In this document: piece after piece, positions 6,342 to 11,272 of the stretch
How positions within the stretch are numbered: position 1 is the first letter of the stretch
Layout of the letters: each line of letters opens with the position of its first letter
Virus record (IMG/VR): IMGVR_UViG_2537562231_000027
Origin: a virus
Lineage: Duplodnaviria; Heunggongvirae; Uroviricota; Caudoviricetes
Strand: one strand, 5' to 3'
DNA: 16,219 bases
Translations under genes and position numbers: made by a program
Notes under the pieces: generated by a model
Told to the model about the DNA's origin: nothing
Databases searched by the model: none
What the model saw: the letters and a program-made list of their open reading frames with translations, nothing else

Positions 6342-6561
6342 AGCCACCTCCCAGGCGTTTAAACATTTTTCCGGACTGAAACGCCACTAGTGGGTAACTG
6401 ATGGTGTAGTTACGCCCCAGTAATTCACACACAACTTTCTGGCTTTCGGTGCTGACCAGGCAAACCCGCAGAACGCGACCGTCGCTGGTGGCGAACCACT
6501 GCCCCACACGGGGGCAACGGTTGTGTCGGTGATACAGAGAATTAACGAGGCGGCGAATCAT
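6328..6561 (-). CDS. Hypothetical protein (77 aa)
   Basis: ATG at 6561 with SD GGGAGGTG 6 nt upstream; ATGA overlap with the upstream gene's stop; 3' end overlaps the initiator start by 14 nt. Confidence 0.55.
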   Translation of the reverse strand: MIRRLVNSLYHRHNRCPRVGQWFATSDGRVLRVCLVSTESQKVVCELLGRNYTISYPLVAFQSGKMFKRLGGGYASV

Positions 6562-6920
6562 GGGCGCACCTCCCATTGATTACAGCGGAAAGCTGTATGA
6601 TTCAGGCTGGTTTCAGCTTCATGGAATGCCTCAATGCAGCTCTCGTAGTACCGCATTGTGCGCAGACTTAACCCAAGCTGAAGCATCATCAGGCCATCAA
6701 GAGTGATGTAATAACCACGCAGGGAGTCACCGTAGATGTGATAAGTACCCGGTATGAAATTGCAGGTAAAAAACTCGCGTGAGCAGTTCAGATACTCGAT
6801 TTTGTCAACGATGTTCTGGTGCATTCGCTTAAAGTGGCAGGCAACATGCAGGGAGAAAATAACGGCCTTGCCGTTGACAACTTCAATTTTCAGGTATGGG
6901 GAAGTTGGGACAGTAGCCAT
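6558..6920 (-). CDS. Hypothetical protein (120 aa), Cys/His-containing
   Basis: Internal ATG at 6920 with SD GGAGG 8 nt upstream; product MATVPTSPYLKIEVVNGKAVIFSLHVACHFKRMHQNIVDKIEYLNCS... The track ORF extends to an ATG at 7220 through GC-rich, low-complexity sequence with no RBS. Confidence 0.5.
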   Translation of the reverse strand: MATVPTSPYLKIEVVNGKAVIFSLHVACHFKRMHQNIVDKIEYLNCSREFFTCNFIPGTYHIYGDSLRGYYITLDGLMMLQLGLSLRTMRYYESCIEAFHEAETSLNHTAFRCNQWEVRP

Positions 6921-7085
6921 GATGGCAGCCTCCGTTGACTGTGGAAAACTTCCACCACCGGAGCTGCGAAACTCACTGGTGGCAGACTGAACAGGGTTCG
7001 CAGTACCGGCGTCAACGGAGACCGGCGAGCCTTTCGGCTCCCCTGCCCAGCCCACCATAATTCTGGCGTGCGTGAGCGCGGACGA

Positions 7086-7106
7086 TAAAAAAGACGCTGG
7101 CGCGTC
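7086..7106 (-). terminator. Candidate intrinsic terminator in the early-right operon (tR1-like)
   Basis: Minus-strand RNA reads GACGC-GCCA-GCGTC followed by TTTTTTAT. Short 5-bp GC stem. Confidence 0.4.
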
Positions 7107-7304
7107 ATATATCGCCGTTGACAATTCCGGGCTGCGACCCCCGGCACCCGCTTTATAAGGTGCGGAGACAGTGTAACGTCCCGAAATTGCAGAATCAATA
7201 TTTGGTCTTGAAATGATCATATAGCTGCTGATATCTTTAGAACTGTTCTTGGATGTTTCGGAGCCGTTTTATGCGAAACAGCTCCCCGTTATTGATGTTG
7301 AGTG

Positions 7305-7329
7305 AGCCGGGTTACTCCCGGCTTTTTTT
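7305..7329 (+). terminator. Rho-independent terminator on plus strand, antisense to the early-right operon
   Basis: AGCCGGG-TTACT-CCCGGCT followed by TTTTTTT; the T-run ends at the Rha-like stop codon. No U-tract on the minus strand, so it is unidirectional. Confidence 0.55.
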
Positions 7330-8036
7330 CACCGCTGCCAACCAATAACCTGAAATAACCCCATTTTCGGGTGATACCAGCGAGTCCCTCGCGGTTCTGC
7401 TTCCTCCATAACCCGATAAAAAGCAGCCATAAACGGTTCCACAGCAACAATTGCGCGACGTGACAACAATCCGTCCGGCGTCATGAACTCATGGGTGTCT
7501 GTAGGAATCTGATAGGCGTTCACCAGATTGCGGCATTTATCATCTGACAAACCGGTTTTTGCTTTCAGTTGGCGATATCCGGCATAGCCCTCACGAATAG
7601 TGCCCTTTTTAATTTGCTCGACTGTTTCAGCAACGTGGCTGACTTTTTCTTCCACCTGAGTGATCCGTTTCTGCTGACGAACTGCTTCAAGAGCCATCGC
7701 GGCAACCATTTCGATTTCGCTCATTGGCTTACGGATCTGTTCTTCCAGTTCGCGCCAGCGATCTACCAGGCGAGCAGTGAATTCAGGACAGAGCTGTGCG
7801 ACGACAATGATGCTGTCGCGCTTACCTCGTTCACCTTCGAATACATACGCGCTAGAAAATCGGCGAGGCCCAAGTGATTGTTTATTCTCAATTTCCACAG
7901 TCTGTGGAAATTGGATGATTCCCTTTTTAGCCAGTGTTTCAATAGTTCTCTTAACACTATCTGGTCGGCTTCCCACCAGCTCTGCGATCTCAACGCTGGT
8001 CATGGATGCTTTGCCGTTAAAAATTGCGGTGTTCAT
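7329..8036 (-). CDS. Phage regulatory protein, Rha family
   Basis: N-terminus MTSVEIAELVGSRPDSVKRTIETLAKKG...RLVDRWRELEEQ resembles the Phage_pRha signature. SD AGGAG 7 nt upstream; ATG overlaps the Cro-like stop (ATGA). Confidence 0.8.
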   Translation of the reverse strand: MNTAIFNGKASMTSVEIAELVGSRPDSVKRTIETLAKKGIIQFPQTVEIENKQSLGPRRFSSAYVFEGERGKRDSIIVVAQLCPEFTARLVDRWRELEEQIRKPMSEIEMVAAMALEAVRQQKRITQVEEKVSHVAETVEQIKKGTIREGYAGYRQLKAKTGLSDDKCRNLVNAYQIPTDTHEFMTPDGLLSRRAIVAVEPFMAAFYRVMEEAEPRGTRWYHPKMGLFQVIGWQR

Positions 8037-8323: not shown

Positions 8324-8456
8324 AACAAAGCACCAATATTAACTTTATAAATCAAGAATACATCAAGTTTAAATTAACATGCAAGTTGCAAAAGGATCGA
8401 ATACACTAAAATCAAGTAAAGATTTATCCTTGTAAAGAAACCCACAGGATTTGGTC
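8324..8456. promoter_or_regulatory. Divergent immunity control region (OR-like) between cro-like and cI-like genes
   Basis: AT-rich. Contains three direct ATCAAG motifs, the palindrome TGCAAGTTGCA and the near-palindrome CAAGTAAAGATTTATCCTTG. Individual promoters not confidently resolved. Confidence 0.5.
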
Positions 8457-9146
8457 ATGAAGAACGTCAAAAACACGGAAAATCGAATAGCCGCGATGCT
8501 GAAAGCAAAAGGATGGACTCAGGCTCAACTGGCCCGCAAGTTAGGTGTGAGTGCGCAATCAGTGCAGTACTGGACAACAGGAAAAACATTTCCACGGAGT
8601 GATAAGCTCGCGCATTTATCAGAGATTAGCGGTTATCCACAATCCTGGTTCTTAGGTGAAGACTCCTCACCAACCTTTTCTTCGCAAGAGAAACACCAGA
8701 CAAGAACAGATAGCGTCGTATTTAATGTCCTTGATGTTGAGTTTAGTTGCGGTGATGGAACTCATGTCCGTGGTGACTTGATAGATGTAGTGCGCTCAAT
8801 AGAACTTGATCCTGAATATGCCCGACGTCTTGTTGGAAATCGGGCATTCAAAAATATAGAAATAGGTAACGCCAGAGGAGACAGTATGGCTCCCACAATC
8901 TCACCTGGCGACCTTCTTTTTCTTGATAAGACAGTAACTTATTTTGATGGCGATGGTATTTATGCATTTTGTTTTGATGGAGAATGCTACGTGAAAAGGC
9001 TTCAAAAAATTGGAAGCAAAATCATGGTGTTATCTGATAACCCCAATTATCAACCATGGAGCATCGAAAAAGAGGGGTTAGCTCTGCTTTATATCCAGTC
9101 TAAAGTGATCTCATCAGTACCATTCAACATAAACAGATTTGGTTAG
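8457..9146 (+). CDS. Prophage repressor, cI/LexA-like (N-terminal HTH, C-terminal S24 peptidase)
   Basis: HTH WTQAQLARKLGVSAQSVQYW; S24 motifs GDSMAPTISPGDLLFLDK and YVKRLQK (Ser/Lys dyad). ATG at 8457; the track start at 8451 is a TTG. Confidence 0.85.
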   Translation: MKNVKNTENRIAAMLKAKGWTQAQLARKLGVSAQSVQYWTTGKTFPRSDKLAHLSEISGYPQSWFLGEDSSPTFSSQEKHQTRTDSVVFNVLDVEFSCGDGTHVRGDLIDVVRSIELDPEYARRLVGNRAFKNIEIGNARGDSMAPTISPGDLLFLDKTVTYFDGDGIYAFCFDGECYVKRLQKIGSKIMVLSDNPNYQPWSIEKEGLALLYIQSKVISSVPFNINRFG

Positions 9147-9292: not shown

Positions 9293-9841
9293 ATGAAGAC
9301 ACTAAAAGCAACTCCAGAAACAACTAATTTTATCAACTGCGGCTGTGTTACGCTTAAGGGCTTAGAACTTGATTCCTTTGCATTAAATATTGCAAATTTG
9401 CTAAGTGCTGTACGCACATTCCATCTTCTGGATTGTGCTCGCTCAAAGGAACTGGGCATTGAGGTAATGGAATTTATCCATGAATATGCTCTATCTGCTG
9501 CTTCTCCTGCACAACAAAAACAATCCTTCCCTGAAAGCTGGCTGGTTAACCTTCGCACCCAACGCGAAGCCTGCGGCTTAACAACCGCCGAACTCGCCAG
9601 GCTGCTCGATCTCGATGAAGAAATTATCATCCAGTGGGAGAGCGGAGAGTATGAACCAACTATCAGTATGCTTATCCCACTGGCAAATATTCTTGGCTGC
9701 GATCCGATGTGCCTGTTAACTGGTGAGGTTACTCCTCCGGAGCAACCAAAAAGTGAGGAGCAGCAACACCATGACGCATCTCAACAAGTTTGCCCCTTAT
9801 CTCGCGAAGCTCTTCTGCGGAAGAACCAATACCAATGGTGA
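9293..9841 (+). CDS. Hypothetical protein with C-terminal XRE-type HTH domain (gene A)
   Basis: HTH GLTTAELARLLDLDEEIIIQWESGEYEPTISMLIPLANILGCDPMCLL; N-terminal about 90 aa unrecognised. ATG at 9293; the track start at 9263 is a TTG. Confidence 0.6.
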   Translation: MKTLKATPETTNFINCGCVTLKGLELDSFALNIANLLSAVRTFHLLDCARSKELGIEVMEFIHEYALSAASPAQQKQSFPESWLVNLRTQREACGLTTAELARLLDLDEEIIIQWESGEYEPTISMLIPLANILGCDPMCLLTGEVTPPEQPKSEEQQHHDASQQVCPLSREALLRKNQYQW

Positions 9842-9969
9842 CATAATCGCCGCTTCGCCCTTCAAGGTACATGCGAACATTTTTATCAATCATTGCGGAA
9901 ACAGTCTCAATATGAAAACACTTCTGAGACTCGCTATATAGCAGAACATATAAGTCAGCTGAGGAAGCC

Positions 9970-10335
9970 ATGAAAAAGTTCGAAAACATAACTGTTCTCC
10001 ATGTTGATGACTTTGATTATACAAACCCGGAACTTCTCCCGGAGGTTGTAAAGGCAATAGATGTTGCCGATATAGTGATTAGAGAAAAGAGAATTGTCAA
10101 AAACAGGCTCGCATGCACTTCAGGAGCAATGACAGAAACAACCTCACAGCAAGATAATTACGAAGGCATTTGTCTGGAGCCTGATTCATTTGCGGTAAAT
10201 GTTTATCATTTATTGCATGCAACACAGGTATTACATATGTCCAGTAATCACGAAACGAAAACACTCGGCAGCGAAATTCTGAGTTTTGCATGTGAGTATA
10301 CAAAAGCTGCTGCCGAAAAAGAATTAGCGCAATAA
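9970..10335 (+). CDS. Hypothetical protein (121 aa, gene B)
   Basis: ATG with SD GAGGAAG 5 nt upstream; no recognisable motifs. Confidence 0.6.
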   Translation: MKKFENITVLHVDDFDYTNPELLPEVVKAIDVADIVIREKRIVKNRLACTSGAMTETTSQQDNYEGICLEPDSFAVNVYHLLHATQVLHMSSNHETKTLGSEILSFACEYTKAAAEKELAQ

Positions 10336-10413
10336 CAACAAATATGCCCTGAACGTTTATTGCGGTTTTATCGCCGGGGATTGTTACAACCTTAATCCAC
10401 AGGAGGCTTTATT

Positions 10414-10527
10414 GTGACTTTTATAAAGAATATGGCATCACACAAGACCGCCTGCCTTATTGCACAATACGGTGAAAATTACATGCATATTGCCTACTTA
10501 TTTCTGCGTAAAGCATACGGGAGATAA
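10414..10527 (+). CDS. Candidate small ORF (37 aa), GTG start
   Basis: Perfect SD AGGAGG 7 nt upstream of GTG; stop lies 2 nt before the gene C ATG. Below the ORF-track size cutoff. Confidence 0.3.
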   Translation: MTFIKNMASHKTACLIAQYGENYMHIAYLFLRKAYGR

Positions 10528-10529
10528 TA

Positions 10530-10712
10530 ATGCATCAGAAAACAGCAGAACACGAGCAAACCAGAGTATTGCTGACCGTCAAAAACGGGAAAGTAATATT
10601 AATTCGTCATGTTCATGACGATGAACTTGTAGGAAGTCTTTCAACATTCCTGTTTATTGCAGAAAAGGCAGGATATGACGTTATTGCACCAGCTGATGAA
10701 GATGAGGAGTAA
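10530..10712 (+). CDS. Hypothetical small protein (60 aa, acidic C-terminus; gene C)
   Basis: SD GGGAGA 6 nt upstream; its 3' end contains the GAGGAG SD for the following IS1-disrupted gene. Confidence 0.55.
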   Translation: MHQKTAEHEQTRVLLTVKNGKVILIRHVHDDELVGSLSTFLFIAEKAGYDVIAPADEDEE

Positions 10713-10717
10713 ATATC

Positions 10718-10792
10718 ATGCAATACACTGAATTCCAGGCTGAAGCAACAGCCGGTAATGACTCCAACTTATTGATAGTGTTTTATGTTTAG
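10718..10792 (+). pseudogene. 5' fragment of IS1-interrupted gene D (12 native codons, then read-through into IS1)
   Basis: ATG at 10718 with SD GAGGAG 8 nt upstream; reading frame enters IS1 at 10754 and stops at 10790-10792. Deleting IS1 plus one target-duplication copy joins it in frame to the ORF at 11552. Confidence 0.6.
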
Positions 10793-11272
10793 ATAATGCC
10801 CGATGACTTTGTCATGCAGCTCCACCGATTTTGAGAACGACAGCGACTTCCGTCCCAGCCGTGCCAGGTGCTGCCTCAGATTCAGGTTATGCCGCTCAAT
10901 TCGCTGCGTATATCGCTTGCTGATTACGTGCAGCTTTCCCTTCAGGCGGGATTCATACAGCGGCCAGCCATCCGTCATCCATATCACCACGTCAAAGGGT
11001 GACAGCAGGCTCATAAGACGCCCCAGCGTCGCCATAGTGCGTTCACCGAATACGTGCGCAACAACCGTCTTCCGGAGCCTGTCATACGCGTAAAACAGCC
11101 AGCGCTGGCGCGATTTAGCCCCGACATAGCCCCACTGTTCGTCCATTTCCGCGCAGACGATGACGTCACTGCCCGGCTGTATGCGCGAGGTTACCGACTG
11201 CGGCCTGAGTTTTTTAAGTGACGTAAAATCGTGTTGAGGCCAACGCCCATAATGCGGGCGGTTGCCCGGCAT
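10769..11272 (-). CDS. insB: IS1 InsB reading frame (made as an InsAB' fusion by -1 frameshift)
   Basis: Canonical InsB-frame sequence ...[49 protein letters not shown]... Confidence 0.9.

Follow-up and report, generated by a model that had tools for sequence, protein, structure and literature searches.

A probable IsrK/seqA-C4/CI antisense-RNA control cassette beneath an 'ash family' reading frame in the early region of a lambdoid prophage

What is encoded by a stretch of phage DNA that is annotated as the beginning of a protein gene and at the same time folds like a regulatory RNA? We address this question for positions 6921-7220 of the IMG/VR record IMGVR_UViG_2537562231_000027, a 16,219-nucleotide (nt) stretch of DNA (referred to as the window) that represents the immunity and early region of a lambdoid prophage. 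RefSeq annotates here a single coding sequence (CDS) of 220 amino acids (aa), 7220-6558, as "ash family protein". The original prediction, made from the sequence alone, described a GC-rich, structured leader, i.e., a regulatory RNA element rather than coding sequence. We conclude, with a probability of about 80%, that the stretch is an IsrK/seqA-C4/CI antisense-RNA control cassette of the early-right operon, located between the Rha/Ant-like gene and the replication genes. It matches the sequence and structure definitions of the Rfam families C4 and isrK and shows in addition the P4-type layout of nested open reading frames (ORFs); the cassette is an ordinary new member of the P4 CI / P1 c4 / Gifsy-1 IsrK family. 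If not stated otherwise, all features are on the minus strand.

An Rfam scan, which had been proposed along with the original prediction, was run over the whole window, and just two matches reach the gathering score. These are full length and located inside the stretch. The C4 model (RF01695) matches 7062-6975 with 78.8 bits (gathering score 45), covers positions 1-87 of 87 and shows zero non-canonical pairs, while the isrK model (RF01394) matches 7163-7087 with 58.7 bits (gathering score 50) at positions 1-77 of 77. The latter also matches the seqA region of P4 and a P1-like plasmid (60.8 bits each). The order isrK-then-C4 is repeated in both, i.e., over seqA and CI in P4 and upstream of icd-ant in the P1-like plasmid. 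The terminator, the 10-bp repeat and the nested stems that had been listed are all present at their stated positions, and each of them maps to a functional part of this known module. The suggested regulatory RNA element can be specified as a combined translational and termination switch.

The IsrK/seqA-type RNA (7087-7163) comprises, from 5' to 3', hairpin 1 (7163-7144), hairpin 2 (7143-7128) with the target a1 (GGGGUCGCAG, 7132-7141) in its loop, the single-stranded target b1 (GUCAACGGCGA, 7112-7122) and an intrinsic terminator (GACGC-GCCA-GCGUC followed by U6, 7087-7106). Here, the hairpins are given by fold and model. Both targets were obtained by a repeat search, a1 as complement of the C4 segment a' and b1 as complement of the C4 loop segment b', with the b1 region being 91% complementary to 7011-7021. 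The candidate minus-strand terminator of the original prediction (stem-loop and T6, 7106-7087) is thereby identified as that of IsrK/seqA: it constitutes the 3' hairpin and U-tail of the Rfam isrK model, and an independent terminator scan agrees.

Upstream of the IsrK-type RNA, a putative internal promoter (7170-7198) can be read from the sequence, i.e., -35 TTGATT (7198-7193), a 17-nt spacer and -10 TACACT (7175-7170) with a predicted start at about 7163. It is the counterpart of P4 P_LE and Gifsy-1 PisrK. Among 113 related loci, a -35/-10 pair is found at constant distance upstream of IsrK in every subtype, with varying hexamers (e.g., TTGAAA-17-TATAGT or TTGCCA-17-TACATT). P4 shows TTGCCT-17-TATAGT at the equivalent position, which would be P_LE. 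The term leader thus holds as far as a regulatory role is concerned, but it falls short as a full description: a predicted promoter, conserved in position, belongs to the region itself, and two distinct RNAs are encoded, of which one or both act in trans in characterised relatives.

RNAs of the C4 family are processed out of a longer transcript, are stable at a length of about 77-80 nt and repress in trans. The C4/CI-type antisense RNA of the window (6975-7062) is built from a 17-bp closing helix around hairpin 1 and hairpin 2. The 12-nt loop of hairpin 2 contains the antisense segment b' (CUCCGUUGAC, 7011-7020; found by the repeat search and the Rfam model), and the antisense segment a' (CUGCGAACCC, 6994-7003) is located at the junction of hairpin 2 and closing helix. 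Both segments have complements on both sides, i.e., a1/b1 upstream within IsrK and a2 (UUUCGCAG, 6964-6971) and b2 (GUCAACGGAG, 6930-6939) downstream. The latter overlaps the Shine-Dalgarno sequence GGAGG (6933-6929), placed 8 nt 5' of ATG 6920 of the 120-aa gene. All 10/10 positions of b' (7020-7011) pair with b2 (6939-6930) over this GGAGG. That is, the perfect 10-bp inverted repeat (CTCCGTTGAC 6930-6939 versus GTCAACGGAG 7011-7020), whose proximal arm had been placed over the Shine-Dalgarno sequence, represents C4 b' versus b2. Likewise, the CTGCGAA/TTCGCAG stem, found inside 13-nt arms at 6958-6970 and 6997-7009, corresponds to a' versus a2, while CCACCA/TGGTGG is present at 6949-6957 and 6977-6985.

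A further repeat was observed next to these pairings. The conserved GGUGGUGG just 3' of a2 (6949-6957) duplicates the 5' arm of the C4 closing helix (AUGGUGGG, 7050-7057) and could alternatively pair with the 3' arm of that helix (CCACCA; 6977-6985). Within the unprocessed transcript, such an alternative pairing would be reminiscent of the Gifsy-1 structures A and B.

Composition and folding agree with a structured RNA. The stretch shows a G+C content of 56.3% compared to 48.4% for the whole window, and its folding z-score is -5.07 (0/200 shuffles fold equally well), such that both the GC-rich and the structured character of the original prediction are borne out. The C4 alone has a minimum free energy (MFE) of -47.8 kcal/mol (z = -4.34). 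For the complete leader (7163-6900; z = -4.84), the MFE structure pairs b' and a' in cis with b2 and a2, and the Shine-Dalgarno sequence is buried.

To assess conservation, IMG/VR was searched with a pattern for the C4 core, which resulted in 120 loci that reduce to 113 distinct contexts with 77 distinct C4 sequences. Since the pattern fixed part of C4, helix 3 is uninformative for covariation. Placed on the Rfam structure, the 77 variants show pairing in 99.8% of 2079 cells, and changes on both sides are found for 12/27 pairs. We count 296 compensatory cells compared to 83±8 in shuffles, while in partner-slid controls only 30-47% are paired. The proposed check by folding and covariation analysis hence finds the stems conserved and their pairings covarying in relatives.

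The antisense segments themselves are hypervariable in the 113 loci: 43 b' and 16 a' variants occur in 64 combinations and vary jointly with their targets a1/b1/a2/b2. A locus' own b'-b2 pairing reaches at least 9/10 in 105/113 loci, compared to 12% for cross-pairings between specificities. For a'-a1, the respective values are 110/113 loci and 0.6%. With 43 b' and 16 a' variants, a combinatorial code of specificities suggests itself. Some viral contigs carry tandem cassettes, i.e., three C4 copies 656 nt apart in L041 (about 9700-11110) and two copies each in L022 and L023. Each of these cassettes is complete, i.e., promoter, IsrK and C4 are followed by a Rha-domain gene of about 120 aa, and each has its own a'/b' specificity.

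Given two RNA genes, what is the role of the reading frame that runs over them? The stretch had been considered to hold no convincing ORF. This is not the case: 6921-7220 form the first 100 codons of the eta-like 220-aa ORF (6558-7220; the RefSeq 'ash family protein'), the frame of which is kept open in relatives. ATG 7220 sits 22 nt upstream of the -35 hexamer, and the frame is open to 6558 with ATG 6920 in frame. The AUG at C4 positions 5-7 (7056-7058) is in frame with the 220-aa ORF as well. From AUG 7058, 166 codons are stop-free, which leads into and through the 120-aa gene. This AUG is invariant, i.e., A5, U6, G7 and G8 of C4 do not vary among the 77 variants.

Frame 0, i.e., the frame of ATG 7220 and of the C4 AUG, is stop-free across C4 in 113/113 loci, compared to just 39 and 60 loci for the other two frames. 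Among 44 different b' loops, 18 stops are found in frame 1 and 9 in frame 2, but 0 in frame 0. In 106/110 loci, the distance between IsrK hairpin 2 and C4 takes one of nine values (-165, -156, -126, -120, -108, -102, -90, -81, -78), each of which is a multiple of three. Many loci show an in-frame start codon just 5' of the -35 hexamer, often with a strong Shine-Dalgarno sequence (e.g., GGGAGGTGCATCAATG); the P4 start region upstream of -35 is ATGATGATG. We thus dropped the idea of a simply spurious Ash ORF, given the phase conservation in the survey and the spacer difference between P4 and the window, which amounts to 84 nt when measured from the conserved IsrK hairpin.

In one relative (L087), the frame over IsrK/C4 is open for 896 nt further upstream and begins with VNTAIFNDKASMTSV, i.e., as the Rha gene. 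In this relative, a single uninterrupted ORF comprises Rha, 'Ash' and the Rha-domain part, while Rha is separate in the window.

The encoded peptide shows a different picture. Over the first 100 codons of the related loci, neither a third-position excess of variability nor a codon periodicity was found. Of the differing codons, a share of 0.18 is synonymous in frame, compared to 0.20 and 0.13 in the other two frames. The 120-aa gene that follows in these loci served as control and shows 0.40 in frame versus 0.06-0.08 out of frame, i.e., clear protein-level selection. Codon-level tests thus did not detect amino-acid purifying selection on the Ash region, unlike what is expected for a real protein domain. 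From these sequence comparisons, the frame over IsrK/C4 is kept open while the peptide is not kept constant, as expected if the passage of ribosomes matters and their product does not. In consequence, the reading "rather than coding" is right in one respect, since a frame without amino-acid-level selection implies that sequence conservation results from the RNA and not from a protein. In the other respect it is not supported, given the missing stops, the indels in multiples of three and the recurrent starts.

This is of relevance for the Pfam family PF10554 (Phage_ASH), which matches residues 16-108 of the 220-aa ORF with 59.8 bits (cut-off 26). We compared P4 (L003, 8168-8584 and 7888-8175) with 6921-7220 of the window. 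In P4, PF10554 hits an obsolete 'cI protein' ORF precisely over the CI RNA, while epsilon is covered by PF25738 instead. Because the P4 match falls on the CI RNA and not on epsilon, the Ash family behaves as a conceptual translation of seqA/IsrK, C4/CI and a2/b2. The immunity factor CI is a short processed RNA according to the P4 papers as cited in PMC3177188. A survey of P4-like satellites used PF10554 as 'epsilon' marker (PMC8628076) and hence effectively detected the seqA-CI RNA locus, and a paper on Stx phages handles 'Ash' as a protein domain of unknown function (PMC8951638). Whether the frame overlaying IsrK and C4 is, in P4-like and lambdoid members, conserved only as a ribosome track, such that ribosome transit generally switches between making and overriding the antisense RNA, we consider an evenly balanced matter. 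A corollary would be that the PF10554 'Ash' family is driven by RNA and promoter conservation and not by a protein domain.

The gene that follows the cassette, i.e., the 120-aa gene (ATG 6920, stop 6558), takes the position of kil/icd/anrP and is the predicted regulated target. Its protein matches Pfam PF09669 (Phage_pRha) with 30.1 bits (cut-off 29.9), the PHROGs 995/518 (transcriptional regulator or Rha-like) and, weakly, the anti-repressor PHROGs 373 and 15204. A Kil/Icd-like product was not found: the 120-aa protein is a Phage_pRha member, while the C-terminus of P4 Eta is assigned to NCBIfam phage_ICD_like (73.3 bits). The junction GGAGGCTGCCATCATGGCTAC and the N-terminus MAT..P.. are common to otherwise unrelated downstream genes (Kil/Icd-like, Rha-domain and others). 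This N-terminus is encoded by a C-rich, G-poor tract (6897-6933 in the window, with an equivalent in most of the loci L003-L123). The conserved tract may be a Rho-loading site rather than a protein motif, because the Rho-dependent terminator timm of P4 (X51522 8365-8209; PMC3177188) begins at the equivalent ATG, i.e., a comparison of coordinates shows that its start coincides with the kil ATG.

By analogy with the characterised relatives, the cassette could operate as follows. In the lysogen, the internal promoter would produce mostly short IsrK and some read-through transcripts, which are expected to be processed into stable C4. This C4 in trans, or the unprocessed leader in cis, would pair with a2/b2 and block translation of the 120-aa gene, and the untranslated RNA would then be terminated by Rho ahead of the replication genes. 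From the internal promoter, neither the 120-aa gene nor the downstream replication genes would thus be expressed. Short IsrK may titrate C4 via a1/b1 and tip the switch on, as in Gifsy-1. After induction, transcripts that pass through the cro-like gene and Rha would carry ATG 7220; the promoter upstream of the long ORF would, by position, be pR. Ribosomes on the 220-aa frame would cross IsrK, C4 and a2/b2, such that the RNAs are kept unfolded and termination is prevented. The pR transcript would be insensitive to the RNA block, because translation of the 220-aa frame stops RNA folding and termination, as proposed for P4 eta.

Two further explanations assign the stretch either to RNA or to protein only. 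According to the former, it is a purely non-coding leader, where the 220-aa ORF is an artefact of gene callers over G+C-rich RNA genes and only the gene at ATG 6920 is translated. This is in line with the ribosome-binding signals, i.e., none at ATG 7220 but GGAGG with 8 nt distance at ATG 6920, with the lack of amino-acid-level selection on the first 100 codons and with P1-type loci, which have no open frame. Furthermore, some records already annotate both RNAs and let the CDS begin after them, e.g., LC710660 of an Stx2 phage. An artefact does not account for the frame statistics, however: 44 hypervariable loops are without any frame-0 stop compared to 27 stops in the other two frames, spacer length classes are separated by multiples of three, and start codons with strong Shine-Dalgarno sequences recur at the equivalent position. 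Besides, the summary of Forti 1999 in PMC10111431 reports translation of P4 eta and a polar effect of nonsense mutations in it, and translation of Gifsy-1 orf45 from the C4-internal AUG was demonstrated (PMC4825925). We thus consider a non-coding leader unlikely. Very improbable is the converse, i.e., an ordinary two-domain protein gene where 'Ash' is a real folded N-terminal domain in front of the Rha domain and the RNA matches are incidental. The PF10554 score well above its cut-off, PHROG 995 spanning residues 5-219 of the 220-aa ORF, the single RefSeq CDS and the frame conserved in relatives would all fit such a gene. But the PF10554 match falls exactly on the P4 CI RNA, RNA helices covary by changes that radically alter the peptide, the synonymous share is no higher in frame than out of frame, third-position periodicity is missing, and P1-type loci retain both RNAs while their frame is broken.

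A third explanation concerns the mode of action. Here, the cassette is mainly an SOS-independent induction switch as in Gifsy-1 and not an immunity or termination device: rising IsrK would pair with the C4 region, which opens AUG 7058, turns on the antirepressor-like Rha-domain protein and triggers the lytic programme. The element order matches isrK-orf45-anrP (PMC4825925), the AUG at C4 positions 5-7 is invariant, the downstream protein has the mentioned weak anti-repressor matches, and the cis fold hides the Shine-Dalgarno sequence, which compares to the inactive structure A of Gifsy-1. On the other hand, the window shows no stop codon that would make a separate orf45-like leader peptide, i.e., the frame enters the 120-aa gene, and the encoded protein consists of the Rha domain only, without the C-terminal parts of known antirepressors. 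Furthermore, replication genes follow directly downstream as in P4. A dominance of this mode is therefore a tentative option that we rate clearly below an immunity and termination cassette; both are compatible and do not exclude each other.

Several observations weigh against the IsrK/seqA-C4/CI cassette as described. Where transcription starts and ends, that C4 is processed, that termination depends on Rho and that the 220-aa frame is translated are predictions from sequence and analogy. The internal promoter agrees with the consensus at just 8/12 positions, falls thereby below the scan threshold and was for that reason not called. ATG 7220 shows, unlike the starts of many relatives, no recognisable Shine-Dalgarno sequence; translation of the long frame may therefore be weak here or start at AUG 7058 (cf. 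Gifsy-1 orf45). The downstream start is out of frame with C4 in 21/112 loci, which form five length classes, and in P1-type loci the frame is interrupted by a TAA within b2 and an upstream ORF is missing. The read-through ORF is hence not universal, and we rejected an in-frame fusion of C4 with the gene that follows as a general rule. As in-frame fusion is not universal, the in-frame junction was probably inherited together with the conserved GGAGGCTGCCATCATGGCTAC junction. Also, the regulated gene is a Rha-domain protein here and not Kil/Icd. Finally, the 113 loci share descent and were found by a pattern that fixes part of C4, i.e., they are non-independent samples.

Concerning the genomic neighbourhood, the minus strand carries in this order a Cro/YdaS-like gene (8323-8033), the Rha/Ant-like gene (235 aa, 8036-7329), the cassette, the 120-aa gene (6558-6920), an 82-aa gene and genes for an O-like replication initiator, a DnaC-like and a DnaB-like protein. 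An XRE-family repressor gene (8451-9146) is encoded divergently to these early genes. The stretch had been placed directly after the Rha-like gene; this has to be corrected, since Rha stops at 7329 and the ORF-free spacer proper (7221-7328) intervenes between this stop and ATG 7220. A terminator scan of the minus strand found none within 7221-7328.

On the plus strand, a strong intrinsic terminator (GAGCCGGG-TTACT-CCCGGCTT followed by T7, 7304-7330) is located just past the minus-strand Rha stop, and a promoter-like site is composed of TTGAAA (7208-7213), 18 nt and TGATATCTT ending at 7237. A transcript defined by these two signals would have a length of about 87 nt and be antisense to the spacer 5' of ATG 7220. 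Both signals are retained where this spacer occurs in another, diverged form (L087, L092). We discarded this candidate small RNA (about 7244-7330) as a second antisense regulator. It shares UGCGAAAC with the a' segment, which is taken as a chance match because no covariation with it is seen in loci that have this spacer in common but differ in a'. An Rfam scan of the plus strand at 7208-7330 found no family at threshold. The plus-strand terminator gave weak matches (sroD-like with 24.5 bits, PrrF, SorX and others), all of which stay far under the respective thresholds and are explained by a generic terminator hairpin.

What follows for annotation and phage biology? RefSeq and several phage records label the stretch only as "ash family protein", "antirepressor" or "Rha family" CDS, and because it is labelled only as part of a CDS, two RNA genes go unseen. 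By analogy, these hidden genes would decide the expression of a downstream regulator and of replication genes. Cassette-like DNA is present in 3287/5426 complete E. coli genomes, often in multiple copies, and related sequence is found in this region of many Stx-converting phages. With an RNA switch placed between the genes that regulate lysis and lysogeny and those for replication, spontaneous induction as well as cross-immunity could be influenced. By-products of our analysis are the two RNA genes under an "ash family protein" and comparative evidence for a frame conserved only as an open track. If true, the latter affects PF10554, which is annotated in thousands of genomes and in use as P4 'epsilon' marker.

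How does the cassette relate to known systems? Known cassettes are P_LE-seqA-CI-seqC-kil/eta of P4, c4-icd-ant of the P1/P7 immI region and isrK-orf45/STnc1160-anrP of Gifsy-1. With P4, the window shares the order of parts, i.e., a predicted promoter, the IsrK-type RNA and its intrinsic terminator, the C4-type RNA and finally a target over the Shine-Dalgarno sequence of a short gene. Also, the long ORF begins 5' of the internal promoter and leads into the short gene without a change of frame, replication genes are located downstream, and the start junction GGAGGCTGCCATCATGGCTAC is identical. Differences are found for the host element, which is a lambdoid prophage here and not a satellite, for the a'/b' specificities and for the short gene, i.e., a 120-aa Rha domain compared to the 65-aa Kil/Icd-like peptide of P4. 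Furthermore, the IsrK-C4 spacer has 24 nt here (7086-7063) and IsrK hairpin 2 is located 81 nt before C4 compared to 165 nt in P4, and the long ORF of the window neither overlaps an upstream gene nor has a Shine-Dalgarno sequence. For P4 itself, the summary of Forti 1999 given in PMC10111431 describes a constitutive promoter inside eta with early termination via CI and seqA interactions and processing to CI. According to the same summary, Kil is a short in-frame C-terminal product, and full-length Eta is translated only on transcripts of the upstream promoter, where translation prevents termination.

In the P1/P7 immI region, too, an RNA of the C4 family carries a'/b'; its targets are a1/b1 on the upstream side and a2/b2, which cover the ribosome-binding site of the gene that follows. 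The P1-like plasmid also shows the isrK-type element upstream of c4. P1-type loci differ by the in-frame stop within b2 and the missing upstream ORF, such that they have no eta-like read-through frame, as well as by their downstream genes icd and KilAC antirepressor.

The lambdoid setting is shared with the isrK-orf45 (STnc1160)-anrP-isrJ region of Gifsy-1. There, IsrK is transcribed from a promoter of its own and ends in a terminator that is leaky. The orf45 region 3' of IsrK gives rise to a stable processed RNA (STnc1160), as predicted for the window, the downstream gene belongs to the antirepressor/Bro network, and a start codon is found at the 5' end of the C4-type element (PMC4825925). 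Judged by the positions given in PMC4825925, the invariant C4 AUG of the window corresponds to the first start codon of orf45. Experimentally defined properties of IsrK are Hfq binding and action in trans on the read-through transcript, where short IsrK turns on translation of orf45 and of the antirepressor AnrP (PMC4825925). Neither isrJ nor antQ was found adjoining the cassette in the window. While the Gifsy-1 frame stops after 45 codons at the anrP start, which gives translational coupling, the frame of the window continues into the 120-aa gene and extends 54 codons upstream to ATG 7220. The identities IsrK = seqA and C4 = CI as well as their presence in lambdoid prophages were noted earlier (PMC3632133). 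That is, module and logic are already known from P1, P4 and Gifsy-1, and the cassette adds nothing conceptually new to them.

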